A stretch of 64,000 nt of DNA from an uncultured delta proteobacterium (GCA_963808235.1 CAWEEQ010000004.1:2176001-2240000), one strand, 5' to 3'. Shown: positions 4,750 through 46,997, counted from the first letter of the stretch. Numbers and translations are program-made. The notes: generated by a model from the sequence alone, not told the origin.

Positions 4750-4768
4750 AGAGGACGGGCTTAGCGCG

Positions 4769-10941: not shown

Positions 10942-10954
10942 AGTGTATGGCACA

Positions 10955-12998
10955 TCAATCTATCTTGTAAACGTGAGCCTGAAATGGCGCGTAGGTATCT
11001 TTGAATCGAGAGCCGCCTTGGTCGGGACGCGATTGAACGATTCTCGCCGTCCACTGAGACCGTGTGAGCGGGCCGCCGCAATGTAAAACTAGCATCGACA
11101 CTGTCACCGCTGTGATTGTACGAAATAAGGTAGCGGCTTCCGTCCTTGAGATCCTTCTCCTTGGTAATCACGGTACCGGTCGCCGAATTGGCGGAGAGCA
11201 CGGGGCTGTCGGGCGCGAGCAGCATCGGCTCAAGCGCACTAATTCCCTCGGTCACGTTGACCAACTCATCGTAGCGTTGCTGGCGAAGGACCGGATCGCG
11301 TTTAGGGCCCCAGTCGAGTCCGCGCAGTCCGTATGACCAGTAAAAGACTCCGCGCGCGCCTTCGGTGATCGCCATCCAGCTCATGTCGTGGAGCTCTTGC
11401 TCGGTGGGAAAGTGCGACAGCGAATTCAGCCAGAAAAACTGGATCACCGTCCACACCGGCCGCGCGCCATGAACCGCGCCGACGACCTTTCGAGTCAGAT
11501 CGCCGACATAGCTCTCGGGATAGCGGCTGCCGAGAACATAAGGATCGACTCCGAGTACGTCGACGGTGTCGCGCCAGAACTGGTATTCGTTTGGGATAAT
11601 TTTCTACCGCAAAGGTGATGCTGCCGGGGTCGTATTTGTTTGATCAGGCCGTATTGATGGAACGTCCGCGGCTGCCGCTCGCTGGCGCACTCGTCGCAGG
11701 TGTAATAGCCGACGACGCGCGAATCGTCGGCCAGTCCTTTGGCGTACTGAGCGATCACATCGTCCGCGCTGACGCCCCCGCTTCGGCCCATCGCGGATAT
11801 GCGCGCATCTCCGGAAAAAACGCGCTCACGGTCGCCAGGTAGAAGATGCCGAACGGCTCCATCGCCTCGGTGTAAGGATAGGATAACATCGGCGCGGCCG
11901 TTGGCGAGAAAATAATTAATCATCAGATTGATCGGCGCCTTGGATATCGCCGTCAATCGCGGAGTGATAGAAATCGGGTCTCAGCCCAAAGCCAGTCGTA
12001 TCGTACAGTCCGATCACAAATCGCGGCCGGCCGCCCATGTGAATGATATTGTCCGAATCGATCCACGCCTTCATCGTGGCGCGGGTCGCGCTGCTGACCT
12101 TGACGATCGTGTAGGACGATGGCGTGAAGATTCGCTTGTCGCCGGCCCCTTCCAGAGATCCCTGCAGCCGATATCGTCCGGGCGGCAAGGCTGCCCATGT
12201 CGACGGTCGCGACGCGTCGAGCCATCGGCCGGCGGCGACAGCCGATTGGTCGTAAGCACTTTTCCGCCCGAATCCATCACTTCGAGCACGACGTGAAGCT
12301 GCGCGATGGTTGTATCGGCAGGCGGATTAACATCGATTGCGACTCGTGCCACCTGGCTCTGCGTCGCTGAACATCATTCCGCGATAATTCGGATACAGCA
12401 GATAGGTTTCCAGCGGCGCGGGAATCTCGCGGCCCAGAAAGAATTTTCTGAACCATGACGTTCCAGCGACCGGCCCTACAGTCTCCGCGCGGAAGGAACC
12501 GACGCTGCCGTCGGCGAACGACGGCGTGCGCTTTCACCGACGGTGGTCCAGTCGGTCGTGCCAGCAAGAACCGCCTTGGTCATCGCCCATTTCTTCGCGG
12601 AGGCTTCGAGCAGACGGATTCGGGTGCCGCCGCGCCGCTTTGGCCGGAGTGGTCGTCTGAGTTTTGATTTCAGCCGAGATCGTGTAGAGACCCGGTGGGC
12701 ATTTGAACGCGTTCTCCGCAAAAGGGAACGGCGTGGCGCACGGCTGGTTCAGCTTCAGGCTGGCGATATCGCCACTGCCTTCGAGGTGAAGCAAGCAGGG
12801 TCGACACCGTCCAACCCTGAAGCCCGGCGCGCAAGTCGCCGTTGATCAGAAGATTCGGCCCCAAGGTGTACCCCGTTTCCGGCGCATCGAGGCCTCCCGT
12901 AGCGATGTCATCACCATATCCAGAGCCAGTTGGCGTGATCATCGAGAAGCCTGACGACAGATCAATGCAATAGCCACTCGACTAGTCAGTCTGTGCAT
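10955..12998 (-). pseudogene. Frameshift-fragmented paralog of the 28714-31275 secreted glycoside-hydrolase-like protein
   Basis: Fragments in different frames (NLLINGD, LLYPNYRGMMFSD, MKAWID..FVIGLYDTT, APINLMINY, WTVIQFF..HDMSWMAITEGARGVFYWSYG, PFQAHVYKID*) match the 853-aa protein in order. Confidence 0.78.
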
Positions 12999-13042
12999 AG
13001 CTTGACAGTGCCGAGGTAATACTTTCGAGATCCCATCGTTGA

Positions 13043-13875
13043 TCAGGAAGTGGTAGTGGTTGCGATGAGGAAGAATCGCGCCTCGACCAGCGGCGAGCTG
13101 TTCCGAGAATGGACTAAAGCTATTGAGTTCCGGACTACCCATCCAGAGATGATACCCAAGCCCTTTAAGCGAATCGGTTATGGATTTCACTGATCCGTCG
13201 AATTTTTCAAGTCCGCACCCGACATGCATTTCGAAGAAGCAATCCGGCCGATAACGCGAGAGCGTATCGGCCGCTCCGCGCATAACTTTCGATTCGAATC
13301 CCTCGACGTCCACAAAGAGAACGTCGGGGGGCCCATATCGCCGCGTAAGCTCATCGACGCTGACACTGGGCACGGCGATTTTTCCCCAGGCGCCGCTGCC
13401 GTCGTCAACCTGTCCGTTCGCGCGGCAATTGAATTCAACTGGGTCCGAGGTATCGGACACGGCGGCGTTGATCACATCGAGGTTGCGCGCGTCGTTCAGT
13501 CGGCAATTTCGGATTGCGGCTTCATAGTTGTGCCGGCTCGCCTCGACCGCGACCACCTTTCCGGTCGCGCCGACAAATTTTGCTAGGATCATCGCGATGA
13601 GACATTGAAACGCGCCGCAATCGAACACGGTGGCGCCCGGACGTAGACGATGTTGCGCCAGGAACGACATCTCCGAGCGGAATTTCGGTCGAGTCGCGAT
13701 CGTACCAGCTCTTTGCGGTCGGATCCGAGATCCACAAGTCGAACTGATGGCCCGCTCTCGACCGGCGCACCTGGTAAGGTCGAAAACGGCGAAGTGCCCA
13801 ACGATAGCCCGCCACCCGGATTCGGTTCGCGACGGCCGGTGGAAGCAGCGATTTGGCTGCGCTCCTGATACTCAT
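13043..13875 (-). pseudogene. FkbM-family methyltransferase with frameshifts near 13674 and about 13100
   Basis: VFDCGA, VVAVEAS, INAAVSD and FVDVEGFE motifs. The N-terminal part is in another frame (CCG CTC G GAG ATG, one extra base). The alternative-frame ending EARFFLIA..* stops at 13043. Confidence 0.75.
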
Positions 13876-14048
13876 ACCGGTTGAGCCACTGTCATATTCG
13901 CTGGAAGCTTTGCAAACATCGTGCGGCCATCGCAGCGACTGTCCTAAGAGATCGAGTCGATCAGTATCGGTTCTGATGACAAGGTCAGAGCTTGATCACG
14001 TATAGGACAGAAGCAAGACTGCCGTAGCGCTGACCTGACGCGCCAGGA

Positions 14049-15485
14049 TCAGGCCGTTGTCCCCCTTGATACCCGCCGTCCGACGGCTGCCTTCTTGAGT
14101 ATGGCAGTAACGCGCAAACGGTGGCGGGAGGCCACTCTGTAAAGATCTCGTACACGCCCGCGGATAAGATATACATAGAGGTAGCCGGTGATCTGCAGCA
14201 GCTCCATCTTGCGACGTGATAGATGGTCCAGCTCGACGGCATTACCAATCGTCTTGTTGTAGTCTTCCCAGTCGGTGGAGAGCTTCCTGTATCCGCCCTC
14301 TCCTTTGACCGCCATCTCCCAGATCTCTGTTCCAGGATACGGCACCATGATGCCGAAGGCGGCACTCTTCGCGTTGAGCTCCCCGGCAAACTTGATCGAA
14401 TGCCACGCGGTCCTTACCGTCTCGCCGGGATGCCCGATTATGAAAAACGCCAGGAAGTTAAGTCCCGCTTGATGGAACGCGTCGGCTGCGGCTTTGATCT
14501 TTGCTTTAGTGACGCCTTTATTCATTGCGGCCATGATCTTGTCGTCGCCGCTCTCGACCCCCAGTCCCACCTCGACGCACCCGGCCTGCTTCATGAGTTT
14601 GACGAGTTCGAGGTTGATCGTGTTCGCGTGCACCATCGCAGACCATCGGAGTTTCAATCCGCGGGCAATCACCTCGTTGCAGATATCGGCGACGTGCTTC
14701 CGATTAACCGTGAAGGTCTCATCGTGGAAGGGAAACGTCTCGACGCCATACACCTCTGCATTGCGCTGAATCTCATCTGCGACATGTTTCCCAGTGCGAA
14801 GACGGACCGACTGTCCATATGGACGGCTGCAGAAGTTGCAGGAAAACGGACACCCGCGCGATGACATCACCGGGAGCAGTTTGGCGTATTTCCGAAATCC
14901 TTCCTGATCGTAGAGATGCCAGCCGGCGAAACCGAGTTCGTTCAGGGTCGGGGGAATTGATCCGCGCCCGGCCTCGACGATCTCGCCGTTCGGACGACGG
15001 TACCAGACTCCCGGAATGGTTGGCTGCCTTTCGCCGGCGAGAACGGCGGTGACCAGATCGGCGAACGCAACTTCCCCTTCACCGACTACCAGGTAGTCAA
15101 ATCCGGGAAATTCCTCGATAGTTCGCTTTGGCAGAAAGGATGCGTGAAACCCACCGAGCACCATCACAGTATCGGGCAACTGTTCTCGAACCCTTTGCGC
15201 GATGCGATGCGATGTTCCCACCATATGCGTGAATGCGCTGAACCCAACGATCCTGGGCTTGGCCGCGACGATGCGCTGGACGGTCTGATCCACGCTAAGG
15301 CGCTCCAGCTTGCCGTCAATAAGCAGCGGCCGGATCCCTGAGTGCTGCTCGAGCCAGCCACCGACGTACGCGATGCCAATCGCGGGGAAGTTGGGTCGGT
15401 CATAGACTTCCTCGCGAATGACCGCTGCAGGCGGAAAAACCAACACGACTTCAAAGGTTTTTTCGGAATCTGGCAAACCTGACAT
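14049..15485 (-). CDS. Cobalamin-binding radical SAM protein (class B methyltransferase-like)
   Basis: N-terminal B12-binding domain (IGIAYVGG, VGFS, LGGFHAS, VVGEGE), SRGCPFSCNFC (CxxxCxxC), GVESG and FIIGHPGET. Confidence 0.92.
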   Translation of the reverse strand: MSGLPDSEKTFEVVLVFPPAAVIREEVYDRPNFPAIGIAYVGGWLEQHSGIRPLLIDGKLERLSVDQTVQRIVAAKPRIVGFSAFTHMVGTSHRIAQRVREQLPDTVMVLGGFHASFLPKRTIEEFPGFDYLVVGEGEVAFADLVTAVLAGERQPTIPGVWYRRPNGEIVEAGRGSIPPTLNELGFAGWHLYDQEGFRKYAKLLPVMSSRGCPFSCNFCSRPYGQSVRLRTGKHVADEIQRNAEVYGVETFPFHDETFTVNRKHVADICNEVIARGLKLRWSAMVHANTINLELVKLMKQAGCVEVGLGVESGDDKIMAAMNKGVTKAKIKAAADAFHQAGLNFLAFFIIGHPGETVRTAWHSIKFAGELNAKSAAFGIMVPYPGTEIWEMAVKGEGGYRKLSTDWEDYNKTIGNAVELDHLSRRKMELLQITGYLYVYLIRGRVRDLYRVASRHRLRVTAILKKAAVGRRVSRGTTA

Positions 15486-15626
15486 CAGAATTACTCCCCT
15501 CGATTTCAGCCGGAAATCTGCACTTCCGACCCCCGCCTGAGTCCCCCCTCATAATGCCCAGATTCTGCCGCAACCGCAACCGAAACAGCGAAATTGACCG
15601 CGTAATTCCTGACGTCTACAGCACGT

Positions 15627-15866
15627 TTACTGCGCCTGCGCAGTAATCACTTCAACGATTTTTTCAACGCTCACCATACGTTCGGTCTGATCCGGTGAGA
15701 ATTGGCGGCCGAACTCCTGTTCGAGACTGACCACTATGTTCACTTGGGCCAGCGAATCCCATTCCGGATGTAACTGCGGCGATGATTGCTCGGTAATCGA
15801 TGCAAACGGCAGCGTCGTCATCTCGGCCACAATTCCGCGAACCCGGTCCAGCACCGAATCAGGCAT
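15627..15866 (-). CDS. Acyl carrier protein (DltC/FkbJ-like)
   Basis: 79-aa acidic protein with a WDSL phosphopantetheine motif. It overlaps the fkbH-like gene end. Confidence 0.88.
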   Translation of the reverse strand: MPDSVLDRVRGIVAEMTTLPFASITEQSSPQLHPEWDSLAQVNIVVSLEQEFGRQFSPDQTERMVSVEKIVEVITAQAQ

Positions 15867-17745
15867 GAGAAATCGCTCCTTCAGTCACGCATTCGATCCA
15901 GGTCGGCGATTCCATCTTCAGACTCAGATCGTATTCGTAGAGCAGGCCGGCGTTCTCCTCGCGAACGAGCCGGAAATGACGGTTGGGATAGAAGTCTCTG
16001 GCCGGAGCGTTGCGAGCGGTCGGTACGAACCAGCCTTGCAGCCGGCGCGCGCCGCGCTTGGCGCAATCCGCCGCTACGTGGGATAGAAAGGCGGTCTCGA
16101 TCGTACGTCCCATCGCGCGACAACTCAGCATGAAACTGTCGATCTCACATGCCTGACCGGCTTGGGAACAGATCGCGATTCCGACCAATCCGTAGTCGCC
16201 CAGGCGATCAGACGCCGCTAGCGTGTATACCCTCCAGCCCTCGCGCGAGACCAACTCGGCGATCGTTTGTTCGCTGTATCGCTTGGTCGTGAGGTTGAAC
16301 TGATTCGTCTTCTGAGTAAGTTGAGCGACCCGGCCCAAAGTCTCCGCACGCATCGTTCCAATAGTTACCCGGATGTTAAGAGACCGATAGTAGTCTTCCA
16401 AACTCAAAGCACTGGTCTTGAGTGCGATGCGCTGTTGCTCGGCCTGGTAGTGAGATGTGCGCACCTTGTCTTCCGCGGAAATCGCAAGCCGTTCAAATAC
16501 CGGTGCCTCGCGCAAGGCGGTCGCGTAGCCCGCTGGGTCCGAGGGCAGATCGATTACGTACACTTCGGGCGCAAGCGCGCGGACCTCACCGCGTTCTTTG
16601 GGGTCGTCGTCCACAAACGCGAGTGCGGCGGAGTCGATGTTCAGTTCGACCGCAATCTCACGCAAATTTTGCGCCTTGTTGTTCCAATTGATCCGGGTCG
16701 CGGCAAAATGATGCGGCCGCAGGAGCATCGCCGGATGCCCGCTCAGCATCTCGAGCGCCTCCTGCGGGTTATTCTTGCTGCAGACCGCAAGAATTACCCC
16801 ACGCTTATGCAAATCGAGCACGGTGCGCTGGAATTCCAGGAATGCATTGCCCGGATAGTCGTCGCCGAGTTTTATTCCGCTCGGCCCGTCTTCACCGATA
16901 ATTCCGCCCCACACAGTGTTGTCGAGATCCAGGACCAGCGCCTTGCATATTCGCCCCGCGAGCGGCAGCAGAATACGCATGTACTCCGCGGCGAGAAACG
17001 GCAGCGCATCGGCGCGTAGCGGCAAATGGATGCTCAGCCATTTGGCTTCGTCGTACCATCGCAGACTCCCAAATCTGACCATCGCGGCATCGTAGTCGAA
17101 TACATAGACGCCTGCGTTCTCGGAGCAAATTCGCACTATTTCGCGGTTGATCGTTCGCACCGCGTCCACCTGTCCGACATTCTTCTGGGAGTCAATCACT
17201 CCAGCGCTCGGAAATGGCGGCGCGGCGAAGGTATTCAGCACCACATGGGCCTGACTATGCGACCGGACTGCCTCGATAAACCCCTGCAGTTCGGAGCGCG
17301 TCCGGTCGATAAGACTATCGAAGTCGGAGGAGCCCATCTCGACAGAATTGCTCCACAGCTCCGGCAATACATCGCGCGTCTCGGTCGCGAGCCAGACGAG
17401 GTCGGGCTCGAAGCGATAAAGGGCGCCCGCCGGATCGCGCACCTCTTGCGCGTAAGTGTTGAAACCTCCAACCTGCACGACCAAGTCGAGGCCGTGAGAG
17501 ACCGCTTCGGCGCGAACGAGCGGAACCAGCGGCTCGATCGTGTACGAGCGCAAGATTGCGACTCGCAAGCACGGAAGATCCAAGTCGGTTTTGATGCGTT
17601 CAAATTGCTTGAGGACGAACTGTGCGTTCGAAAGCGTTCTCGAGGAACGATAGAGATCGGACATCAGCCGATGAGCCACAGCATAATTGCGGGACTCGAT
17701 CGCCTCGAGAATCCGCTCGCGATCGGTAGTGACGCTATTGCTCAT
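15859..17745 (-). CDS. fkbH: FkbH-like HAD-IIIC glyceryl-ACP synthase (long form)
   Basis: LDLDNTVWGG, CSKNN, INWNNK, FVDD, QLTQKTNQFNLT, DRLGDYGLVG and MLSCRAMGR motifs, plus an extra N-terminal domain. Confidence 0.92.
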   Translation of the reverse strand: MSNSVTTDRERILEAIESRNYAVAHRLMSDLYRSSRTLSNAQFVLKQFERIKTDLDLPCLRVAILRSYTIEPLVPLVRAEAVSHGLDLVVQVGGFNTYAQEVRDPAGALYRFEPDLVWLATETRDVLPELWSNSVEMGSSDFDSLIDRTRSELQGFIEAVRSHSQAHVVLNTFAAPPFPSAGVIDSQKNVGQVDAVRTINREIVRICSENAGVYVFDYDAAMVRFGSLRWYDEAKWLSIHLPLRADALPFLAAEYMRILLPLAGRICKALVLDLDNTVWGGIIGEDGPSGIKLGDDYPGNAFLEFQRTVLDLHKRGVILAVCSKNNPQEALEMLSGHPAMLLRPHHFAATRINWNNKAQNLREIAVELNIDSAALAFVDDDPKERGEVRALAPEVYVIDLPSDPAGYATALREAPVFERLAISAEDKVRTSHYQAEQQRIALKTSALSLEDYYRSLNIRVTIGTMRAETLGRVAQLTQKTNQFNLTTKRYSEQTIAELVSREGWRVYTLAASDRLGDYGLVGIAICSQAGQACEIDSFMLSCRAMGRTIETAFLSHVAADCAKRGARRLQGWFVPTARNAPARDFYPNRHFRLVREENAGLLYEYDLSLKMESPTWIECVTEGAISHA

Positions 17746-17829
17746 TGGAAGTTGCTCAACAAGCCGTCACCGCACCTGGGAAAAACAACTCACAGTGAGC
17801 CTGTCGGGTAAGCGGTAAACTCAACCGGA

Positions 17830-18345
17830 TCAGCCTTTGTCCCACTCGCCGTGTGCTTTTCCAACCACTCTCGCCGGCGATCCGACAACTACTACTCCGG
17901 CGGGAACGCTCCGAAATACCACAGAACCGGCGCCAACTATCGCGCCGGCGCCGATGCTGACCCCCGGCGCGATGATTGCGCCCGTACAGACATACGAGCG
18001 GGCCCCAAGAGTTACCGGCTTCAGCAAATCGCTTCTCACGTTGTGGCATTCGATGATTACACGCGGCGCAACGCAAACGCGATCTTCGAGCGTAATCATC
18101 TCGGGAAAAACCGGATCGATGAGGCAATCGCGGCCAATAAAATGTCCGCTGCCACGGAATTTCACCCCCATCAGACGATACGCGAGCAGCCGCATCCTGG
18201 CCGGCAACACGCTGACGAAATACGGGACCGTCATGAGAACCAGCCGATGCGCGAGCGAAGACTTCCGAACCGCGCTATATTCCTTCAATCCCATACCGGG
18301 CCGCCACGCATCGTCGCCGGAAGCTCTGCTGTTGGTTTGGTTCAT
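17830..18345 (-). CDS. Left-handed beta-helix (hexapeptide) acyltransferase
   Basis: GAIIAPGVSIGAGAIVGAGSVV..VPAGVVVVGSPARVV. Confidence 0.85.
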   Translation of the reverse strand: MNQTNSRASGDDAWRPGMGLKEYSAVRKSSLAHRLVLMTVPYFVSVLPARMRLLAYRLMGVKFRGSGHFIGRDCLIDPVFPEMITLEDRVCVAPRVIIECHNVRSDLLKPVTLGARSYVCTGAIIAPGVSIGAGAIVGAGSVVFRSVPAGVVVVGSPARVVGKAHGEWDKG

Positions 18346-18455
18346 CAAAAAGAACAACGCGCGTGGTCATCCTGCCAGAGTGATCGCGCGACTCTCAAGA
18401 GCCTTGCCTCCTACGCCCTTGCCGCCGAAGGAATCGCCGGTGTACGTTGCGCCTG

Positions 18456-19265
18456 ATGAGCAGTCCATCGAATCTTGAAACTCCCGCAATCCGGCTTTAT
18501 CTCGATCTCTTGAAACGCTCGTTGACTAATACGCTGTTCGAAACGGAACCCGACGCCGATCAGGACAACGAACTGCGCTTCGTGCACGGCTTCATCCATC
18601 ACTACATCAACGGTTCCGCGGTTTCGATGCTGCCGCTGAAAAGATTCGACCATCTGCAATCCTGCGTCGAAGACGTTCTCGCACATCACATTGCCGGCGA
18701 TCTCATCGAAGCGGGAGTTTGGCGCGGCGGCGCGACCATCTTCATGCGTGCGGCGCTCAAGGCTTACGGCGCAACCGACAGGACCGTATGGGTGGCCGAT
18801 TCCTTCGAAGGGCTGCCGGAGCCCGATGCCGAAAAGTTTCCCCTCGAAGCGAAGGCGCATCAGGGGCCGGTTATGACCAAGACCTACAAGCATCTCGCGG
18901 CAAGTGTCGAGGAGGTTCAGCGAAACTTCCGCGCCTACGGGATGCTCGACGATCAGGTTCGGTTCCTCAAAGGTTGGTTCAAGGACACGCTTCCGAATGC
19001 CCCGATCGAAGCACTCTCGATCATGCGACTGGACGGCGACTTCTACGAATCGACCAGAGACGGACTGGTAAATCTCTATGACAAATTGTCGATCGGCGGA
19101 TACGCGATCATCGACGACTACGGCGAGACTTCGTGGACCTATTGCCGGAAAGCAGTCGATGAATTTCGCCAGGAACGTGGGATCGAGGAGCCGCTGGTCC
19201 GAGTCGACTCGAAGTGCCATTTCTGGCGCAAACTGCGCCACGCACCGAAGCCGCTGCCTGCGTAG
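18456..19265 (+). CDS. TylF/NovP-family O-methyltransferase (copy 2, canonical)
   Basis: GDLIEAGVWRGG, VADSFEGLP, KGWFKDTLP, RLDGDFYEST and IIDDY motifs. Confidence 0.93.
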   Translation: MSSPSNLETPAIRLYLDLLKRSLTNTLFETEPDADQDNELRFVHGFIHHYINGSAVSMLPLKRFDHLQSCVEDVLAHHIAGDLIEAGVWRGGATIFMRAALKAYGATDRTVWVADSFEGLPEPDAEKFPLEAKAHQGPVMTKTYKHLAASVEEVQRNFRAYGMLDDQVRFLKGWFKDTLPNAPIEALSIMRLDGDFYESTRDGLVNLYDKLSIGGYAIIDDYGETSWTYCRKAVDEFRQERGIEEPLVRVDSKCHFWRKLRHAPKPLPA

Positions 19266-19397
19266 GGTTTCTTCCCAGAGATCTGCCGTCCCCAGCGTGG
19301 GATCGAAGCTCCCAATGAAGAAAGCTCTCCGCGAGAATCGCAACTCTGTACGACGCGGCGATTCACGTAGGCACACGTCGGGCATTGCGTGCGCAGT

Positions 19398-19427
19398 TTG
19401 ACAACGAGGTCGTAACACAGGTAAATT
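19398..19427 (+). promoter_or_regulatory. Candidate sigma70 promoter for the priming glycosyltransferase
   Basis: TTGACA-N18-TAAATT about 90 bp upstream of 19520. Confidence 0.4.
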
Positions 19428-19519
19428 CTGTCGAGCTTAGGCGAAGTAGATGTGTAATTGACGCTCTAAGGCTCAATTAGGATGCCGCTGCCCGATAGGA
19501 TGCAGGCGGTGGGGGTGAG

Positions 19520-20953
19520 TTGAATCCGAAAAATACCAGGGAAGTGGCGGAGCGAATTGCCGATGCTATCTGCATTTTCTTCGGCTATTTGATCGCCACA
19601 GAGATCCCGTTCGCTCTGCGCCTGGACAGGATTCAGATAATCCCGCACGGCAGGGCTTCCGCCGCGCAATCTGAGTATTCTGCCCTTTTAATTCTAGCGA
19701 TTTTGTCGTGGCTGACCCTGACTGCATACACAGAAACCTATCGGCCGCACCGCACAGAACGCCTGAATTTCCTGGTCCGTCGCCTGATACAGACGTTGCT
19801 GATCTGGTCTCTGGTGACGGTCGCGGCGATCTTTGCACTGAAATTTGAATATCTGAGCCGGCAATTTATCGCCTATTTCATGGGCGCGTCGATGGTTTTC
19901 ATCTTCATCCGGCAACTAGGAACCACGCTTTTGCTGCGCAACTTGCGCCGCTCAGCGCATAAGTGGCGGACCGCGGTGGTGATTGGCGACGAGGCGACTT
20001 GCGAGCACTTCGCGGGACTTCTGACCGCCACCGATACTATGGGCTATGAGCGGGTAGTCGTTCAGCCGACCAAGCGGGTCCTCAATTCGAACGGCAATGG
20101 GGCGGAACCAGGATACGACTTCGATGCGGCTTCGCTCGCGGAATTTGATGACATCTACCTAATCGGTGCAAACGACGGGGCGGAGTCTCCGGCGGGCGCA
20201 GACGGTGTCCTCACCCTCCTCAAGCGGGGCAAATCCGTGCACATCATACCGAGCCTCCTGGATACCCGGCTGTTTCGCCAGTCGCTCGGCGACGTCGCCG
20301 GCATTCCGGTACTCTCGGTGAGCAAGGGTGAGCTGACACCCTCTCAAGCGGCTCTGAAGCGCACCGTCGATTTCATCCTGTCGACGCTACTGTTGATCGT
20401 TCTATCGCCGGTGATCGGTGTGATCGCGCTCGCAATCAAATTTACCTCGGCGGGACCCGCGCTGTTCCGTCAGAAGCGGCTGGGTCTCAAGGGGGAACCG
20501 TTTACTCTCTATAAGTTCCGCACCATGCATGCTAACGCCGAGCAGATCCTGAAGGACTCGCCGGCGCTTTATGACAAATACCTGAAAAACAACTTCAAGC
20601 TTCCCAAGGGCGAAGATCCGCGCCTCGCTCCGCTCGGGAGATTACTGCGTGCCACCAGCCTCGATGAGCTGCCGCAACTATTCAACGTGTTGATCGGTGA
20701 GATGAGCCTGGTCGGGCCGCGCCCGATCGTGCCCCATGAGGCGGTTCAATACGGCGATCTAGCGATGCTGTTCATGTCCGCCAAACCAGGGCTGACCGGC
20801 CATTGGCAGGTCAGCGGCCGCAGCGAGATCGTGGAGTACCAAAAGCGGGTCGAATTGGACCTCGAATACATCCGGGACCAATCGCTGGGCAAAGACATCG
20901 AGATATTGCTGCGGACTGTTCCGGCAGTGCTGCGGCGCAAGGGCGCCAACTAG
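19520..20953 (+). CDS. Priming undecaprenyl-phosphate sugar phosphotransferase (WcaJ/WbaP family)
   Basis: N-terminal TM helices, then [38 protein letters not shown] and [14 protein letters not shown]. Confidence 0.95.
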
Positions 20954-21038
20954 GCGGACTGTCTTCGTCGCGGCGTCAACTCTTTTTCTCAGCTCATTGC
21001 TATGGTACGAGTTCTTTATACGGAGGATTAGAGCAATC

Positions 21039-21458
21039 GTGGTCAAACTATCACTCCGTCAATGCTGCCTGCTCGCGTGTTTTGCGATTGTTGCCGGATT
21101 CTTCTTCCCGGCGCCTTCTTCTCTGTCCGCCGCCCGTGCGCCAGGCCACCCGGTCGGCCTCAACGTCAGCCTGCGGGACACGGGCAAGACAGTCGCGCTC
21201 CCAGTCGGCGAGCAACTAGTGGTCACGCTTCCGATCACACGCAATTACGCGGACGATACCTGGTACGTGTCGAGCAATTCCGGCGGCGCGCTGAAACTGA
21301 TAGCGGGGCCTGACGAGAAGCACGGGCGAAACTGGACACCTTGGAAGCCCAGCTCGCAGGTGTTCTACTTCCGACGTGAAGCCCCAGGGCGTGTAAATTT
21401 GGTGCTGGAAAGGAAGTACTGGTCGCGGCCGATGATCCTCGACGTAGTCGATCGGTAA
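21039..21458 (+). CDS. Small secreted protein, chagasin/I42-like beta-sandwich
   Basis: Signal peptide, DTGKTVALPVGEQLVVTLP and VFYFRREAPGRVNLVL. GGAGG lies upstream of GTG 21039. Confidence 0.5.
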   Translation: MVKLSLRQCCLLACFAIVAGFFFPAPSSLSAARAPGHPVGLNVSLRDTGKTVALPVGEQLVVTLPITRNYADDTWYVSSNSGGALKLIAGPDEKHGRNWTPWKPSSQVFYFRREAPGRVNLVLERKYWSRPMILDVVDR

Positions 21459-21566
21459 GCACTCGATGGCGGCAGTTGCAGTTTGACCACTGGCCTCATC
21501 CTTGATCCTGCTTTGATCCTTGATACTGCTTGATGCGGCCCCTATAAGAGGGAGAGATACCGGACT

Positions 21567-22994
21567 GTGCTCTTCAATTCACTCGGGTTTCTGGTATTTT
21601 TACCCCTCGTCCTTTGTGTCTATTCGCTGCTGAACCATCGCTGGCAGAATTATTTTCTGCTGGCGGCAAGCCTGTTCTTCTACGCCTGCTGGGATTGGCG
21701 ATTCGTATTCCTTCTTCTCTTAACCGTGGTGGTGGACTTTTACGTCGCGCGCTCGCTCGAATCGATGCAACAGCGCGGCGCAGCGCCCGCGCGGCGCAAG
21801 CTGGTGCTTGCCGTTAGCATGGCGACAAACCTCGTCGTGCTGGGATTTTTCAAGTACTACGACTTCTTTTCGACCAGCCTGCAGACCCTGTTGAGTAGCC
21901 TGGGGCTTGGCGTTGGCATTCACACCCTGAACATCATTCTGCCAGTGGGGATTTCCTTCTATACGTTTCAGTCGATGAGCTACACCATCGACGTGTATAG
22001 GGGCGAACTGCCTGCGACGAAAAGTTTTCTCGATTTCACATTGTTCGTTTGCTTCTTTCCCCATCTGGTAGCCGGACCGATAATGCGCGCGGTCGACATG
22101 CTGCCGCAGGTAATTCAGCCGCGAAAGGTCAGCCGTCAGCAAATCCATGACGGCCTTTATCTGATGCTTTGGGGCTACTGGAAGAAGGTTTTCGTTGCCG
22201 ACAACATGGCCCCGGTGGTCAATCATATCTTCTCCCTTCCACGAGCAACCGGGTTCCAGACGCTTTTGGGTGTGTATGCGTTTGCGGTTCAAATCTACTG
22301 CGACTTTTCGGGATACACGGATATTGCGCGCGGGGTCGCCAAGCTGATGGGATTTGAGTTGATTCTCAACTTCAACCTTCCCTACTTCTCCAGGAGTCCA
22401 CGAGAATTTTGGACCCGCTGGCATATCAGCCTGTCGAATTGGCTGCGCAACTATCTTTATATCCCACTGGGCGGCAACCGTAATGGCGTGTCCAAGACCC
22501 AGCGAAACCTGATGATCACGATGGTGCTGGGAGGGCTATGGCATGGCGCTGCGTGGAATTTTGTGTTCTGGGGTTTTTACCATGGGCTTCTATTGGTGAT
22601 TCACAGGATGCTCGAGCCGCTACTGGCTTTTGTCAAAGCGGCCTCACGCGCTGGGAATTTTATTCTGATATCTCTCGAGATCTTTCTGATGTTTCAACTC
22701 ACCTGTTACGGATGGTTGCTTTTCCGCGCCGAGTCGTTCGCTCAGATCCGGGATATGAGCGCGGCCCTGATGCATCCTATGGACAGTGTCGATCTGGCGT
22801 TGGCGTGGAAGGTGGCCTTCTTCCTCGTCCCTCTACTGGCTATCGAGTTTATCCAGTATATGTCCGGCAAGTGGAATCTCCTTGACTTTTCGTGGATGCC
22901 GATGGAGCTGAAGTCGGCCGCGTTGGCCGTCGTCGCATACTGTGTGCTGTTCCACGCGGCCCAGCCCCAGGCATTCATTTACTTCCAGTTTTGA
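21567..22994 (+). CDS. MBOAT O-acyltransferase (AlgI/PatA/DltB-like) with C-terminal FIYFQF motif
   Basis: MLFNS, LPVGISFYTFQ, FFPHLVAGPI, YCDFSGYTDIA, FWTRWHISLS and GLWHGA (catalytic His). Ends in AFIYFQF. Confidence 0.95.
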   Translation: MLFNSLGFLVFLPLVLCVYSLLNHRWQNYFLLAASLFFYACWDWRFVFLLLLTVVVDFYVARSLESMQQRGAAPARRKLVLAVSMATNLVVLGFFKYYDFFSTSLQTLLSSLGLGVGIHTLNIILPVGISFYTFQSMSYTIDVYRGELPATKSFLDFTLFVCFFPHLVAGPIMRAVDMLPQVIQPRKVSRQQIHDGLYLMLWGYWKKVFVADNMAPVVNHIFSLPRATGFQTLLGVYAFAVQIYCDFSGYTDIARGVAKLMGFELILNFNLPYFSRSPREFWTRWHISLSNWLRNYLYIPLGGNRNGVSKTQRNLMITMVLGGLWHGAAWNFVFWGFYHGLLLVIHRMLEPLLAFVKAASRAGNFILISLEIFLMFQLTCYGWLLFRAESFAQIRDMSAALMHPMDSVDLALAWKVAFFLVPLLAIEFIQYMSGKWNLLDFSWMPMELKSAALAVVAYCVLFHAAQPQAFIYFQF

Positions 22995-23005
22995 GCTGAC
23001 TAATC

Positions 23006-24139
23006 GTGTCCTCTGGATCGATGCACAAGACAATCTACATTCACCTCGCGTTGAGCGCGCTGGTAGCTCTCCTGGTGCTTGAGTTATGCACGCGCTTTGA
23101 CGATCTCATGTCCTTCGGAGCACCCATCTGGCAGGCCTATAGCGCGAACAATCTGTTTGAGTATGACTCACTGGGTAAGCGCGGCAAGCCTTATTCCAGC
23201 TACAAGAAGTGGCGGCTCAACAGCCTTGGGTTTCGCGCTCCTGAGGTGCAGCAGAACCGCTTCCGCATCGTATGTCTCGGCGAGTCTGAGACGTTTGGTT
23301 TGTACGAGCAGCCCGGTAATGAATACCCAGCGCAGCTCGAGCGAGATCTGAACCACTGGGCGGCACGCCGGGTCTTCCAGGTGGTCAATGCCGCCATTCC
23401 CGGACAGACGCTCGTTTCCACCGCGCATCGGGTGCCAGAGATGGTGGCCAGGACGAAGCCGCAAATCGCTGTGATCTATCCGTCTCCCTCCTACTACATA
23501 TGGCTACAAGGCCTGCGCTCCGGCGGGGAGCTTGGCGTTGTGCCAAGGAAGCAAAGGTTTCAATTGCGGCTTGCTGACAATCTCTGGAACCTCACTAAAG
23601 ACGTGCTTGCGATGCTTCCACGGCGACTTCGAATTGCATCATATGAATTTCTGATCAAACGACAAGTGTCGGCGCTGGGTACCCCAGTTATGGAACAGGT
23701 GCCAGACCAGAACATCGAGCGGTACAAGCAGGATCTGTTGGCCCTGATCGATGCGTTGCGAGCAAGCGGCGTCGAGCCCGTATTAGTGACTCACGCTACT
23801 TATTTCGGCACCAATTGTAGGGCGCCGGATCGCCTGACCCTGGCGGAGTGGCGCAAGCTGTATCCGATGCTCAAGGAGAACGGATTCCTCGACATGGAAG
23901 AACGAATGAATGCAGCGATGCGCAGCCTTGCCGCCGCCGATCATGTCCTCTTAGTGGATATGGCAAGTGAGATGCCGCCTGGCCCAAAGTATTTTGCCGA
24001 CATGGTCCATTTCACGGATGAAGGCGCGACGGTGATGGCTGCAAAGCTCGCTCAGGGTCTTGAACCTGCCATCGAGAGCCGCGGCTTCCAATTGACCGGT
24101 CCGAGCAGGATCGACGAGCCGGCAAAGTCCGGCGCCTAG
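23006..24139 (+). CDS. Membrane-anchored SGNH-fold protein (AlgJ/PatB/DltD-like acyltransferase candidate)
   Basis: N-terminal TM, NSLGFR, block I LGESETFG, VVNAAIPG and block V DMVH. Directly follows the MBOAT gene. Confidence 0.8.
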   Translation: MSSGSMHKTIYIHLALSALVALLVLELCTRFDDLMSFGAPIWQAYSANNLFEYDSLGKRGKPYSSYKKWRLNSLGFRAPEVQQNRFRIVCLGESETFGLYEQPGNEYPAQLERDLNHWAARRVFQVVNAAIPGQTLVSTAHRVPEMVARTKPQIAVIYPSPSYYIWLQGLRSGGELGVVPRKQRFQLRLADNLWNLTKDVLAMLPRRLRIASYEFLIKRQVSALGTPVMEQVPDQNIERYKQDLLALIDALRASGVEPVLVTHATYFGTNCRAPDRLTLAEWRKLYPMLKENGFLDMEERMNAAMRSLAAADHVLLVDMASEMPPGPKYFADMVHFTDEGATVMAAKLAQGLEPAIESRGFQLTGPSRIDEPAKSGA

Positions 24140-24146
24140 CGGTCAT

Positions 24147-24893
24147 TCAGGCTTTCGGGCGGAATGCTCTTTTGGCGCGGCTCAGGACTCGCCGAGTCAG
24201 CGTCCGCTCCCCTGAGGCGGGCCAGCATTGCGGTCCTGCGGTCCACATGTAGACCCATTCGGATTCGGAGCCCGGCGGGACTTCTTCGCATGCAGCCAGC
24301 GCCGGATTGGCGGCGATCGCGTCTGGCGACGCGAACAGAACCATATTCTGGCGATACCACCAGGCCAGACGCCTTTCGTCGCGAAGTTTCGGTCGGAACG
24401 GATCGAGCATCCTATGTCCGCACTCCTCGAAGGCTTTTCGCCAATAGGAAAGCGGCTGGCAATTGATGTGTCCTCCGCCCCCCTGACCCGGCGGCGCCGC
24501 CGAAAAGAGGACTTGCGGCGCCGCGGAAGCAAGCTGCCGTACCAAGTGCCGCGAATTGCGCGCGGGTAGATGTTCGGCGACCTCGAGGCAGATGGCTAAA
24601 TCGAATCGACCCGGCGGAATCTCGAACTCGCCGCTCAATTCGGTGGGACGAAAGCAATCGGCCGGAAACAGCAGCGTCGATGGCTTGATATAGTCGCCAT
24701 CCATTCCAACTATTTTCTCTATCCCCTGCGCTCTGAATTCGCTTAGCCATGCACCGCGGCCGCATCCGACGTCCAGGACACTCGACGGATGAGTCAACGC
24801 CACCAACATCGGCACCACGATCCGAGCGGAATCGAGCGCGCGATCGCCCTCGTACATGTCTTCTGCGTAATAGTTTGCCAAGTCCTTGCGCAT
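24147..24893 (-). CDS. Class I SAM-dependent methyltransferase
   Basis: VLDVGCGRG, FDLAICLEVAEHL and FSAAPPGQGGGGHIN motifs. Start uncertain (up to 25019). Confidence 0.85.
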   Translation of the reverse strand: MRKDLANYYAEDMYEGDRALDSARIVVPMLVALTHPSSVLDVGCGRGAWLSEFRAQGIEKIVGMDGDYIKPSTLLFPADCFRPTELSGEFEIPPGRFDLAICLEVAEHLPARNSRHLVRQLASAAPQVLFSAAPPGQGGGGHINCQPLSYWRKAFEECGHRMLDPFRPKLRDERRLAWWYRQNMVLFASPDAIAANPALAACEEVPPGSESEWVYMWTAGPQCWPASGERTLTRRVLSRAKRAFRPKA

Positions 24894-25046
24894 CGCGTAG
24901 GTCCGAATTCTCTGTATCAGTTCTGTCGCAGAGCGAGCAACTCGATAGCTATTTTCCGGCAGCGCGAGCACCGCATCTGAACTCTGAACCACAGTTCCGA
25001 CATCATCGTTGGCAAACAATGTCGCCCTCGGATACGATCGCGCGAT

Positions 25047-25757
25047 ATGAGTCTGTCATATCTGCGGCTTCCTGGCCCCTCGGTCATCGAGGCCATTCTT
25101 AAGCGGCGGCGCCTCAGAGCGGGATTGCGAGGAATCTATCGAAAATTCCGCGACTACACGATGGTTCACGAAGCCAAGTACGTCAATAACCTGGAACTCT
25201 GTTACGAGTTCAGAAAGATTTCCGGCTGCGTCGTGGAGTGCGGCGTCTGGCGTGGCGGCATGAGTGCTGGAATGGCCCAGGTGCTCGGTGCCGACCGGCA
25301 GTATTTTCTGTTCGACAGCTTTGAGGGATTGCCGCCCGCGCGCGAAGATCTGGACGGTGCTTCGGCGGTTGCCTGGCAGAGCGACCCCAAGGCGCCGTTT
25401 CACCACAACAATTGCACTGCCTCGGAAGCGGAAGCGGCGGCGGCGATGAAGCTTTCCGGCATGCCTTCATTCTCGCTCATCAAGGGTTGGTTCAATGAAA
25501 CGCTCCCGCGTTTCGTTCTTCCATGTGACATAGCGGTGCTGCGACTCGATGGCGATTGGTACGATTCTACGCGCGTCTGCCTCGAGAATCTGTATCCGCA
25601 CATCGCACCCGGCGGAATTGTAATTATCGACGACTACTACACTTGGGATGGATGCACGCGAGCGGTCAATGAATTCCTTGCCGGTGTCGCGCCGCCGAAG
25701 GCAGTTCCAAAGCTTCGCCAGTTTCGCGACAGCGTTGCATACTTCATCAAGGGATGA
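25047..25757 (+). CDS. TylF/NovP-family O-methyltransferase (copy 3)
   Basis: GCVVECGVWRGG, FDSFEGLP, KGWFNETLP, RLDGDWYDST and IIDDY motifs. Confidence 0.92.
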   Translation: MSLSYLRLPGPSVIEAILKRRRLRAGLRGIYRKFRDYTMVHEAKYVNNLELCYEFRKISGCVVECGVWRGGMSAGMAQVLGADRQYFLFDSFEGLPPAREDLDGASAVAWQSDPKAPFHHNNCTASEAEAAAAMKLSGMPSFSLIKGWFNETLPRFVLPCDIAVLRLDGDWYDSTRVCLENLYPHIAPGGIVIIDDYYTWDGCTRAVNEFLAGVAPPKAVPKLRQFRDSVAYFIKG

Positions 25758-26823: not shown

Positions 26824-28158
26824 TCAGCCGTCTACTCCGTTTGCTTGCAACAGCAGGTAGCCAATGATCGGCAGCACAACCGAAATCGACAGGACACCAG
26901 CGGCCGCGGCACCGGTGGGCCCGTGCCATATCGTGAAGGGATAGATCACGATGGCAAGCACCACCGCGCGAGTGGCCGCCGCGATGACGTATAATTTCGG
27001 TTTTCCGAGCCCGCCGAGAAAGCTTCGGCCGACCACCAGGAAGCCCTGCAGGAGGCCGTAAATGCACAGGACCTTGAGCGGGTTGACCGCATGAACCCAA
27101 GCTGGTCCGAATATCCGGAGGACCGTCTTTGCGCCAAAAGCGAAAATAAACGCAACATACCCGAGGCCGACTGCGGCCACTAACGCCATCACCGACCACA
27201 ACAGGCGTGCTCTCGCCCGGCGATCGTCGCGCAATCGCGCCACCATCGGAAACATCACCAAGGCAGTCGACATCGTGAATTCCGCGACCGGCATCTCGCC
27301 GGCGCGAAAGGCCATTTGGTAGTTGCCGAGCGCTCCGGGGCCGAGCAGATGGCCCACCGCCAGATTGTCGAGTTGCTTCGCGATGAATTCACACAGGGTG
27401 CCGACGCCAGACCATATTCCAAAGGTGAGCATGGTTCTCGCGCGGGCCATGCTAAATCCCAGCCGCGGCCAATGCGGAAACAGCCAATACGTCAAAATGT
27501 CTCGCACCGCCGCACCAACGAGTTGCGAGAACACCAGACCGCGCCAGTCGCGCCAGTACAGCACCGCTACAAGGCCGAATATCAAGCTCGCCCCAACCTC
27601 CGAAACGTTCAGGACGGTCACCAAGTGAAAATCGAGACGCCGATAGAGAGATACGAGGCGTGGACTCGGAATCGATTGCAAGATTGGAAGCGGAACGATC
27701 GCCCAGAAGACGGTGTAAGCGTCGCCCAAATGGAAAAAAGCGCCCAGCGGACGCGCGAACACAACCAATATCAATCCGATGATCAGACTGCGCACAAGAT
27801 AGGTGGTGAATAGAGTGTCAAGATACGGATCGATTTGATCCTGCTGCTGGACAAGCGATTGCCCCATGCGGGGTTCTGTCGCCGCATTCAGCGCCGCGCA
27901 GATCAACATCGCACTGGCGGTCACGCCGAAGTCAAAGGGCTTTAGCAACCGCACGAAGACAACGTACCGCACAGCGATACCAAGTGAGGTCAGACCGCGC
28001 GCCGAGGCAGTCCAGGAAAGACCGGTGAAGAATTTCCTGAGTAGCGCTTCCCGGAGTTGCCTGGAGGTCTCCGCACTGCGGCTGGCGCCCGCGGCGTCCA
28101 TCTCCGGCGCACATGCGTCTGGCGATGGCGCCGCCTCGTTTCCCCGTTTGCGGGTCAT
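26824..28158 (-). CDS. wzx: Wzx-type oligosaccharide flippase (MOP/PST family)
   Basis: Multi-TM protein with RLLKPFDFG, QLDNLAVGHLLGPGALGNYQMAF and FGPAW motifs. Confidence 0.88.
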   Translation of the reverse strand: MTRKRGNEAAPSPDACAPEMDAAGASRSAETSRQLREALLRKFFTGLSWTASARGLTSLGIAVRYVVFVRLLKPFDFGVTASAMLICAALNAATEPRMGQSLVQQQDQIDPYLDTLFTTYLVRSLIIGLILVVFARPLGAFFHLGDAYTVFWAIVPLPILQSIPSPRLVSLYRRLDFHLVTVLNVSEVGASLIFGLVAVLYWRDWRGLVFSQLVGAAVRDILTYWLFPHWPRLGFSMARARTMLTFGIWSGVGTLCEFIAKQLDNLAVGHLLGPGALGNYQMAFRAGEMPVAEFTMSTALVMFPMVARLRDDRRARARLLWSVMALVAAVGLGYVAFIFAFGAKTVLRIFGPAWVHAVNPLKVLCIYGLLQGFLVVGRSFLGGLGKPKLYVIAAATRAVVLAIVIYPFTIWHGPTGAAAAGVLSISVVLPIIGYLLLQANGVDG

Positions 28159-39470: not shown

Positions 39471-39526
39471 TGCAAGAATAGGGTCGGGTCATTATTTGCT
39501 TGCTTAAGAAGCGTGCTACGGAGAAC

Positions 39527-43700: not shown

Positions 43701-43887
43701 GGGAGTCGGCTCTGAGTTGCGCCGCCCGCTCGGAATCGCAATCGTCGGCGGCCTGCTGATAAGCCAGGTGCTCACGCTATACACCACGCCGGTGATTTTC
43801 CTGACCTTCGACCGGATGGCGGCGCGATTTGCCAAATGGCGCGCAAAGGACGTTGTTCCGGAGACCGCTCCGGCTCGTGCGTTATGA
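40771..43887 (+). CDS. mdtB: RND multidrug efflux permease, MdtB/MuxB
   Basis: [48 protein letters not shown] and [15 protein letters not shown] motifs. Confidence 0.95.
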
Positions 43888-46800: not shown

Positions 46801-46997
46801 GAAACGGCACGGGCTCCGAGATGCGCCGCCCGCTTGGAATCGCGATCGTGGGCGGACTGCTGGTGAGCCAAGTGCTGACGCTGTATACGACGCCGGTGAT
46901 CTACTTGTACATGGACCGGCTGAGCGCGGGATGGTCGAAATTGTGGCGTCGCGCGCTTGGCCGATCGACGCCTGCGCGGGCTGACTCGCGCGCGTGA
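43884..46997 (+). CDS. mdtC: RND multidrug efflux permease, MdtC/MuxC
   Basis: [37 protein letters not shown] and [18 protein letters not shown] overlap with mdtB. Confidence 0.95.

Follow-up and report, generated by a model that had tools for sequence, protein, structure and literature searches.

A polysaccharide locus of an uncultured deltaproteobacterium combines an AlgI/PatA-type MBOAT–SGNH pair with a hexapeptide acyltransferase–FkbH–ACP module

Background

Does an FkbH-like enzyme that is encoded in a polysaccharide locus together with its own acyl carrier protein (ACP) supply the acyl group for the membrane-bound O-acyltransferase (MBOAT) plus the SGNH protein of the same locus, or do the two sets of genes work apart? 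The question is raised by a Wzx/Wzy-dependent polysaccharide locus that takes up bases 1 to ~36,200, as delimited by Pfam and NCBIfam scans of the open-reading frames (ORFs), of a 64,000-nucleotide stretch of DNA from an uncultured delta proteobacterium (GCA_963808235.1 CAWEEQ010000004.1:2176001-2240000; this whole stretch is called the window below). An initial annotation had read the genes as a single relay, in which the FkbH-like enzyme takes the place of DltA and forms a glyceryl-ACP, possibly methylated, whose acyl group passes to the tyrosine of the MBOAT and then to the SGNH protein, which would esterify the exported polysaccharide. We consider it reasonably probable, on the evidence of sequence and gene context given here, that the window holds two independent acylation modules in one polysaccharide locus. 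The relay, under which the hexapeptide-repeat acyltransferase encoded beside FkbH would be an unrelated acetyl-CoA O-acetyltransferase, a bystander or a second outlet of the same carrier, appears unlikely for this locus.

The FkbH–ACP pair and its minus-strand neighbours

The FkbH-like enzyme (628 amino acids; 15859-17745, minus strand) has an N-terminal FkbH_N domain, followed by a HAD-IIIC phosphatase domain and, at its C-terminus, a Cys domain. It scored 289.3 bits against the NCBIfam model TIGR01686, 'FkbH domain' (cut-off 146.65), and was also matched by Pfam FkbH_N; its translation contains LVLDLDNTVWGG (DLDNT) and FMLSCRAMGR (SCR), and D273/D275/T277 and S541/C542/R543 are invariant among 30 aligned homologues. 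A homologue search placed 7,829 of 8,000 scored candidates at E ≤ 1e-3, and the sole relative found by sequence search in the PDB was 3SLR (BF1531). The gene of a stand-alone ACP of 79 amino acids (15627-15866, minus strand) overlaps the FkbH stop codon by 8 nt. The best ACP model matched this protein with E 4.5e-9, yet under the curated cut-off of that model, and PP-binding matched with E 1.3e-3; W36 and S38 of the WDSL phosphopantetheine site are invariant, and D37 is at least 90% conserved, among 29 FkbH-linked ACPs. The overlapping pair of an FkbH-like HAD protein and a WDSL ACP described in the initial annotation was therefore found as stated.

On the same strand, 85 nt upstream of FkbH, lies a gene for a hexapeptide-repeat (LbH, WcaF-like) acyltransferase of 175 amino acids (17830-18357), matched by Pfam Hexapep at 27.7 bits and by the NCBIfam WcaF family at 53.3 bits, under its cut-off. 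Past the ACP gene, the minus strand continues with a B12-binding radical-SAM enzyme of 478 amino acids (14049-15485; Pfam Radical_SAM 76.1 bits, B12-binding 71.4 bits; no NCBIfam model above cut-off) and with an FkbM-family methyltransferase (12939-13917; TIGR01444 96.1 bits), whose gene carries a frameshift near 13674. With regard to this frameshift, residues 2-82 of the orthologue in the related locus L024, described below, match 13917-13675 and residues 83-276 match 13673-13092.

Ketosynthase, acyltransferase, condensation and adenylation domains of polyketide synthases (PKS) and nonribosomal peptide synthetases (NRPS) were absent from the 58 window ORFs scanned, in agreement with the initial annotation, and an AMP-binding (DltA-like adenylating) domain was not found in the same ORFs. 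The Glyoxalase_4 profile found no VOC/glyoxalase gene in the window. Since the FkbH–ACP pair lies in a Wzx/Wzy locus without a PKS, it is sensibly read as serving to decorate the polymer with a glycerate-type acyl group, and we regard such a decoration as likely from the gene content.

The MBOAT–SGNH pair

The MBOAT (475 amino acids; 21567-22994, plus strand; Pfam MBOAT 82.3 bits, cut-off 27) is of the AlgI/PatA type, and its last six residues are FIYFQF. Its H286 and H326 are invariant in 35 sequences, and its WHG histidine aligns with that of DltB in 6BUG, DltB being the closest solved structure (96.8 bits); the DltB model TIGR04091 scored it at 155 bits against a cut-off of 375, so that it is not a DltB equivalog. 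All 8,000 of the 8,000 scored candidates in a homologue search matched. The best 120 orthologues are 56-92% identical to the window protein, most of them have ~476 amino acids, and those to which JGI gives a name appear as AlgI or DltB. FIYFQF ends all 12 of the orthologues sampled, F-x-Y-x-x-F ends 11 of the 11 long MBOATs examined (the window protein included), and the Tistrella MBOAT described below ends likewise; since every sampled orthologue and long MBOAT ends in this way, the FIYFQF terminus carries no special information about the window gene. Among window ORFs of 25 codons or more, the MBOAT gene alone has F.Y..F as its ending, and hence no separate DltX-like ORF was found.

The SGNH gene (377 amino acids; 23006-24139, plus strand; Lipase_GDSL_2 44.9 bits, cut-off 32.9) starts 11 nt past the MBOAT stop codon. 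The AF2 model of its product (pLDDT 93.6) shows the SGNH fold, with residues 3-37 forming an N-terminal helix, and Foldseek related the model with probability 1.00 to many SGNH/GDSL hydrolases, generic GDSL hydrolases first; a PDB sequence search gave no meaningful match to any solved structure. G92, S94 and H335 are invariant and D332 is at least 90% conserved among 63 aligned sequences. This agrees with the initial annotation of an MBOAT ending in FIYFQF and followed by a membrane-anchored SGNH protein. A gene of the AlgF or AlgX type was not recognised in the window.

The ACP gene stands outside the MBOAT operon, 5.7 kb from the MBOAT gene and on the other strand; FkbH and the MBOAT are likewise encoded on opposite strands, with four genes between them. 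It speaks for the relay that all of its parts lie within 8.5 kb of one locus, and against it that the ACP is outside the MBOAT operon and that the window is without a VOC gene. A predicted complex of MBOAT and ACP scored 0.00 against a mark of 0.32 in a run without controls, and was weighed neither for nor against binding.

Published work on comparable MBOATs bears on the same point. For PatA/B, AlgI/J/X and WssH/I, the text of Anderson et al. (PMC12148441, J Biol Chem 2025) places the six-residue peptide at the MBOAT's C-terminal end, fused to it on two extra helices, and describes these fused-hexapeptide MBOAT–SGNH systems as working without a carrier protein. This description counts against the relay, as the window MBOAT belongs to the fused-motif class. 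Relatives of the window MBOAT were also sampled from plasmids, six records of the 170 that matched being picked from the top rows to represent distinct genera. In five of the six, the MBOAT adjoins a GDSL/SGNH, AlgX or unnamed protein and ACP and FkbH are absent within 7 kb. Taken together, the sequence and context of the pair suggest an ordinary, separately acquired O-acetylation module.

The closest related locus

The closest syntenic locus to the window, L024, comes from a metagenome-assembled genome of an uncultured deltaproteobacterium. The two loci have in common, in the same order and at 50-86% identity, the genes for Wzx, a GT2 glycosyltransferase, TylF, a class-I methyltransferase, a 153-aa protein and the priming transferase, followed by the hexapeptide acyltransferase, FkbH, ACP, FkbM, a 688-aa protein, a sulfotransferase, a second GT2, a GT4 and Wzy. 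The trio, beside which 13 further locus genes are shared, is compact in L024, with the hexapeptide gene at 9443-9985, FkbH at 9995-11843 and the ACP at 11858-12100, and the hexapeptide orthologue in the same position matches that of the window with E 1.8e-45. A tblastn search of all frames, ±10 kb, found no match at E ≤ 1e-3 to the window MBOAT, SGNH or radical-SAM proteins in L024, and the slot between the 153-aa gene and the methyltransferases is too small for an MBOAT–SGNH pair. Since L024 has FkbH and ACP without the MBOAT and SGNH genes, the FkbH–ACP module has been kept without the MBOAT pair in the closest available relative, and this FkbH–ACP–hexapeptide arrangement tells against the relay.

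Neighbours of FkbH genes in 80 loci

Genome contigs were scanned with the 30-sequence FkbH alignment, giving 596 relatives, and the best 80 loci were kept with up to 10 kb on each side; in 51 of them FkbH is flanked by 3 kb or more in both directions. Neighbours were sought in six-frame ORFs with the window proteins and with neighbour-cluster profiles, whose cluster representatives were named by Pfam. An ACP was encoded at most 700 nt from FkbH in 56 of the 80 loci. Within 3 kb of FkbH, SDR and VOC (Glyoxalase_4) proteins were each found in 24 loci, a hexapeptide acyltransferase in 23, an unnamed 377-aa family in 15, a phosphopantetheinyl transferase in 11, a GNAT (Acetyltransf_6) in 10, Antibiotic_NAT in seven and an MBOAT in four. 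The hexapeptide, GNAT, Antibiotic_NAT and MBOAT classes are mutually exclusive within this distance, and 36 of the 80 loci have none of the four. As there is one acyltransferase class within 3 kb per locus, the window, where the hexapeptide gene is the one close to FkbH and the MBOAT gene is 3.8 kb away on the other strand, counts as a hexapeptide locus. The arrangement of the window recurs elsewhere, since in 14 of the 80 loci a hexapeptide gene lies at most 300 nt from FkbH; 11 of these have it on the same strand and 10 have it upstream, as in the window, and in L010 the distance is 14 nt upstream. On the basis of this conserved neighbourhood, the hexapeptide enzyme is proposed as the acceptor-side enzyme for the acyl-ACP.

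The very large, AlgI-like orthogroup of the window MBOAT occurs in none of the 80 FkbH loci, where the best MBOAT reached 249 bits, compared with at least 598 bits for orthologues; this is a further point against the relay. The initial annotation had proposed a joint occurrence of fkbH, acp, MBOAT and SGNH genes, which holds for compact cassettes in other organisms, described below, and fails for the MBOAT orthogroup of the window.

Homologues of the B12 radical-SAM enzyme were present in three of the 80 loci (L063, 8206-9849; L060, 15768-17261; L043, 15213-16832), and the L063 gene lies directly upstream of FkbH, those of L060 and L043 at other places in their loci. This recurrence near FkbH–ACP pairs suggests a radical modification of the carrier-bound unit, and the radical-SAM enzyme of the window possibly methylates or otherwise modifies the unit bound to its ACP.

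Such chemistry leads to another explanation, namely that the FkbH-like enzyme loads some other unit in place of glycerate, or has phosphatase activity alone, and that the decoration would then not be derived from glycerate. The literature search found no published assay of the 620-630 aa FkbH family, identity to the plasmid-borne PKS-type FkbHs is only 26-35%, and the SDR and VOC neighbours of so many FkbH genes point to further chemistry on the carrier. Against this stand a TIGR01686 score well above the cut-off, the invariant HAD DxDxT motif and SCR cysteine, and the ACP as immediate neighbour in the 56 loci counted above. We judge it very unlikely that the unit is not glycerate-derived.

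In a separate set of 47 FkbH fusion proteins of at least 1100 amino acids (P0391-P0437), the architectures included FkbH joined to ACP and thioesterase (FkbH–ACP–thioesterase), to TPR repeats and PF18588, to an NRPS condensation domain or to FkbM. None of the 47 carried an MBOAT or hexapeptide domain, a weak negative result given that a hexapeptide fusion (~800 aa) would fall outside this length band.

FkbH–ACP–MBOAT cassettes in other organisms

Plasmid contexts of full-length FkbH relatives were also opened, 10 being selected, with a preference for non-Streptomyces rows, from 197 matching records. Compact cassettes in which FkbH and ACP stand with an MBOAT and an anchored DltD/AlgX-like protein were found at L078, which is one of the four MBOAT-containing loci among the 80, and, in the plasmid sample, on Sinorhizobium (S.) meliloti pSymB, in Rhodobacteraceae SC52 and on Tistrella pTM1, and these speak for the relay as a concept. 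The L078 cassette (234-5546) consists of an ACP, an MBOAT ending in FLYFRF, an AlgX-like protein (PF16822, 68.8 bits) and a VOC protein, abutting FkbH, in a non-polysaccharide context. The S. meliloti pSymB cassette (L082, CP140948.1, 5347-11235) reads VOC–MBOAT (ending in FLYQGF)–409-aa protein–ACP–FkbH; 39 plasmid records cover at least 80% of it in a megablast search, including that of strain 1021 (NC_003078.1, 631043-637429). The SC52 cassette (L085, 6494-12281), a plasmid operon, has the order ACP–FkbH–MBOAT–358-aa protein–VOC–hexapeptide acyltransferase. The Tistrella pTM1 cassette (L093, 1877-7812) has ACP, FkbH, MBOAT and a DltD/AlgX-like protein, with no VOC annotated. All four long cassette MBOATs end in FxYxxF, which also favours the relay.

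In the other three MBOAT-containing loci of the 80, L075, L063 and L076, the MBOAT gene is no more than three genes from FkbH and encodes a short variant (390-415 aa) that lacks the motif; it adjoins the gene of a weakly SGNH-like anchored protein, and an ACP and/or a phosphopantetheinyl transferase is also present. These variants too are in favour of the relay concept, and the MBOATs of the four loci do not look like neighbours by chance. No DltX-like ORF ending in F.Y..F was found near the short MBOATs of L063 and L076, and two F.Y..F ORFs of L075 (26 and 66 codons) were rejected as DltX candidates, as they run across the MBOAT and SGNH-like genes in different frames and seem to be chance occurrences. 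Read by eye, the sequences of the unnamed cassette proteins show a hydrophobic segment at the N-terminus, a G-x-S-S/T stretch and, at the C-terminus, D-x-x-H. The MBOAT-adjacent proteins of different loci were too divergent to be linked by BLAST, and Pfam named only those of L078 (ALGX, 68.8 bits) and Loktanella (ALGX, 180.9 bits).

In three cassettes, those of S. meliloti, Tistrella and L078, FkbH–ACP has no candidate acyltransferase next to it other than the MBOAT. It may therefore reasonably be inferred, from the gene content of these three, that an MBOAT relay there depends on a carrier which FkbH loads. The literature search found no published description of ACP–FkbH–MBOAT–DltD/AlgX-like–VOC cassettes, which MBOAT-pathway surveys may still cover, and no paper on an FkbH/ACP/MBOAT/SGNH ester pathway, gellan glyceryl esters included. 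Read in this way, the cassettes would be the first MBOAT systems other than Dlt that depend on a carrier protein, and they are a more novel lead than the window itself; since one of them is carried by the genetically tractable S. meliloti, the relay idea can be put to a direct test. The relay concept appears real in the cassettes of these other organisms and is probably not at work in the window.

Other plasmid contexts were of several kinds. Three were PKS-like (Methylosinus, Burkholderia ubonensis and Pseudalkalibacillus). Three lay in glycan loci with a soluble partner or none (Niveispirillum, with WcbI; Aquisphaera; Maritalea). A Paroceanicella plasmid carried ACP–FkbH–methyltransferase–VOC beside MprF. 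On the Maritalea plasmid (L097, 4714-8692), an 819-aa 'HAD-IIIC' protein matches the Antibiotic_NAT profile and the next protein, an SDR, matches the ACP profile; the genes sit in a pseB/NeuB nonulosonic-acid locus, and the fusion ties FkbH to a soluble N-acyltransferase.

These contexts, together with the 80 loci, suggest that FkbH–ACP is a portable donor of acyl groups, combined in each locus with a single acyltransferase. This enzyme would most often be soluble (hexapeptide, GNAT, Antibiotic_NAT or WcbI type) and sometimes an MBOAT accompanied by a DltD/AlgX-like protein. In the polysaccharide loci of soil bacteria and archaea, FkbH-like 'HAD-IIIC phosphatases' that have an ACP of their own occur very commonly, and no assigned role for FkbH–ACP in such loci was found in the literature search.

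Phylogeny of FkbH and MBOAT proteins

Two FkbH trees and one MBOAT tree were built. The 80-row FkbH tree was a quick IQ-TREE run from which L073 was dropped as an ORF fragment of less than 400 aa; the 39-row FkbH tree, also quick, combined 31 of the 80 loci, hand-chosen to span the clades, with eight plasmid loci; the 26-row MBOAT tree was made with a careful search. The window FkbH is sister to that of L024 in both FkbH trees (SH-aLRT 97 with 80 rows, 94 with 39), and the two fall within a clade of hexapeptide- or GNAT-partnered FkbHs (99 with 80 rows; 100 with 39, where it has 11 rows). The GNAT-linked FkbHs form one clade in the 80-row tree (99). In that tree, the MBOAT-linked FkbHs of L063, L075 and L078 form, with L072, a separate clade (100). 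In the 39-row tree, six of the seven MBOAT-linked FkbHs (L063, L075, L078, S. meliloti, SC52 and Tistrella) fall in a clade with support of 99, which also contains L072, Paroceanicella and Niveispirillum, the archaeal L076 being placed elsewhere.

The MBOAT tree gave a similar picture, with the window protein in a tight orthogroup (100/99), to which a Paludibaculum plasmid MBOAT is a weakly supported sister (86/80). The long cassette MBOATs of L078, S. meliloti and SC52 are in a different clade (97/94), which includes an alginate-type AlgI-like protein of Loktanella and a Skermanella MBOAT. Both the FkbH and the MBOAT of the window are thus outside the cassette clades, which argues against the relay in the window. 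The acyl decoration pathway of the initial annotation was sustained in part: the FkbH–ACP pair is conserved and stands in a Wzx/Wzy locus, whereas the link from the ACP to the MBOAT and SGNH proteins found no support in L024, in the trees or in the 80 FkbH loci.

The trees also bear on whether the FkbH–ACP pair, merely located in this locus, might serve a lipid or small-molecule pathway with genes elsewhere by providing a glycerate-derived unit. FkbHs of the same length class do occur in PKS or tetronate-like contexts on the plasmids of Methylosinus, B. ubonensis and Pseudalkalibacillus, and some FkbHs are fused to NRPS or PKS modules. The PKS-linked FkbHs, however, form a clade of their own (99, 39-row tree), PKS, KAS III and NRPS genes are absent from the window ORFs scanned, and the module lies among glycosyltransferases, Wzy, Wzx and the priming transferase both in the window and in L024. 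Such a role seems very unlikely.

Two proposed acylation modules in one locus

The preferred reading of the window is accordingly one of two modules, and their independence is supported by L024, by the pattern of one acyltransferase per locus, by the FkbH and MBOAT trees, by the absence of the MBOAT orthogroup from FkbH loci and by the published carrier-independence of fused-motif MBOATs. The first module, on the minus strand, would comprise the hexapeptide acyltransferase, FkbH, ACP, the B12 radical-SAM enzyme and FkbM. Judging from its family and catalytic residues, FkbH would dephosphorylate a glycolytic phosphoglycerate (1,3-bisphosphoglycerate, by analogy) and load the glyceryl unit on the ACP, where the radical-SAM enzyme and/or methyltransferases might, speculatively, modify it. 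The soluble hexapeptide acyltransferase would then act in the cytoplasm and transfer this unit to a sugar of the lipid-linked repeat, as the conserved gene neighbourhood suggests. The second module, on the plus strand past the priming transferase, would be the MBOAT and SGNH proteins as a PatA/PatB- or AlgI/AlgJ-type pair. Its architecture suggests that the MBOAT acylates the tyrosine of its own FIYFQF, most likely from acetyl-CoA, and that the anchored SGNH protein would hand the acetyl group to the exported polymer. The locus thus probably adds two different esters by two routes.

Several observations weigh against this reading. In SC52, FkbH–ACP occurs with an MBOAT and a hexapeptide acyltransferase together, as in the window, a joint occurrence that also favours the relay, and the L078, S. 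meliloti pSymB and Tistrella cassettes indicate that fused-FxYxxF MBOATs can partner an FkbH–ACP carrier system. For the closest plasmid relative of the window MBOAT, on Paludibaculum pPfer1, the sixth of the sampled records, a distant HAD-IIIC gene (124 bits against the window FkbH) lies 4.2 kb upstream; a profile search found no ACP near this gene. As to the donor, PatA acetylates its own motif tyrosine from acetyl-CoA, and this donor is shown for PatA only (PMC12148441); the mechanism of transfer from MBOAT to SGNH protein is demonstrated only for PatA/PatB. The two divergent gene runs of the window, the minus-strand run from the hexapeptide acyltransferase gene and the plus-strand run from a TylF gene, are parted by a spacer of 90 nt, so that co-regulation of both runs is possible. 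Finally, no nucleotide-sugar or aminosugar genes that might point to the acceptor were recognised in the scans of window ORFs.

Remaining genes of the window

The plus-strand run opens with a TylF-type O-methyltransferase (18447-19265; Pfam TylF 286.2 bits), and the longest minus-strand ORF at this place (18411-19418, 335 aa) was rejected as a shadow of this true gene, the TylF match being 286 bits. The run continues with a priming polyprenyl glycosylphosphotransferase (19520-20953, plus strand; Bac_transf 205.8 bits; TIGR03025 363.1 bits against a cut-off of 295.55) and a family-less protein of 153 amino acids with a hydrophobic N-terminus (20997-21458, plus strand; no Pfam or NCBIfam match). 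The homologue of the latter in L024 (4608-5498, minus strand; E 2e-41) carries a C-terminal OmpA domain. A scan of 12500-25500 gave five promoter-like and 11 terminator-like sites, compared with 5.6 and 11.5 in shuffled sequences, and since these counts are close to each other the scan holds no information on operon structure.

Elsewhere, the polysaccharide locus encodes a Wzc-like kinase (1142-3499), Wzy (4769-6046), Wzx (26824-28158, minus strand), several GT2 and GT4 glycosyltransferases and two sulfotransferases, and its methyltransferases are four of the TylF type, one FkbM and two of class I. Three consecutive minus-strand genes at 10030-13917 look disrupted, by gene decay or by an assembly error: in addition to the frameshifted FkbM gene, the homologue of the L024 688-aa protein falls into four or more reading-frame pieces (10958-12969), and another copy of the sulfotransferase gene (10030-10926) is reduced to short ORFs. 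The 688-aa protein has an intact paralogue, encoded at 28714-31275. RND efflux genes unrelated to the polysaccharide locus lie at 39500-46997, where two pumps in tandem are accompanied by a membrane-fusion protein and a TetR regulator, and at 61866-64000, where the window ends with another membrane-fusion/RND pair.

Comparison with known systems

The flagellin of Campylobacter jejuni carries a di-O-methylglyceroyl nonulosonate, and the flagellar glycosylation locus of this organism contains ACP genes. In the cj1302 region of that locus, an fkbH-domain gene stands in a glycan-modification setting without a PKS (PMC7099621). The modified sugar there is a protein-linked nonulosonic acid, not an exopolysaccharide, and the two loci are likened by description, not by sequence.

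The best-known context of the FkbH domain is the formation of glyceryl-ACP by FkbH/OzmB proteins on the way to methoxymalonyl-ACP and tetronates, and the window shares with these pathways the FkbH domain, the catalytic motifs and an ACP encoded directly downstream (PMC7489565). It differs in the absence of a PKS, of an FkbI/FkbK-type dehydrogenase pair and of a FabH-like tetronate enzyme, in its polysaccharide context, and in that the partner of its FkbH appears to be a hexapeptide acyltransferase.

The Dlt pathway served as the model for the relay. There, in the account given by PMC12148441, DltB passes D-alanine from the carrier DltC to the tyrosine of a separate microprotein, DltX, which bears the FxYxxF motif. 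Common to Dlt and the window is that an MBOAT and an SGNH-like protein move, or in the window would move, an acyl group across the membrane by way of an acyl-tyrosine intermediate; unlike Dlt, the window has neither DltA nor a separate DltX, and its carrier gene is not in the MBOAT operon. The compact cassettes contain the same four protein families as the window, and their long MBOATs likewise end in FxYxxF, but their genes are contiguous, three of the four include a VOC gene, and their FkbHs form a clade of their own, none of which applies to the window.

Of the MBOAT systems, PatA/PatB, AlgI/AlgJ/AlgX and WssH/WssI differ from the window in the polymer, which in the window is a Wzx/Wzy heteropolysaccharide, and in that no AlgF- or AlgX-type gene accompanies the window pair. 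They are like it in having an MBOAT of ~475 amino acids with the WHG histidine and a fused C-terminal FxYxxF, an anchored SGNH gene directly downstream and an operon without a carrier-protein gene. The window is thus a locus that combines an O-acetylation pair of the AlgI/PatA type with an uncharacterised but widespread hexapeptide acyltransferase–FkbH–ACP module.

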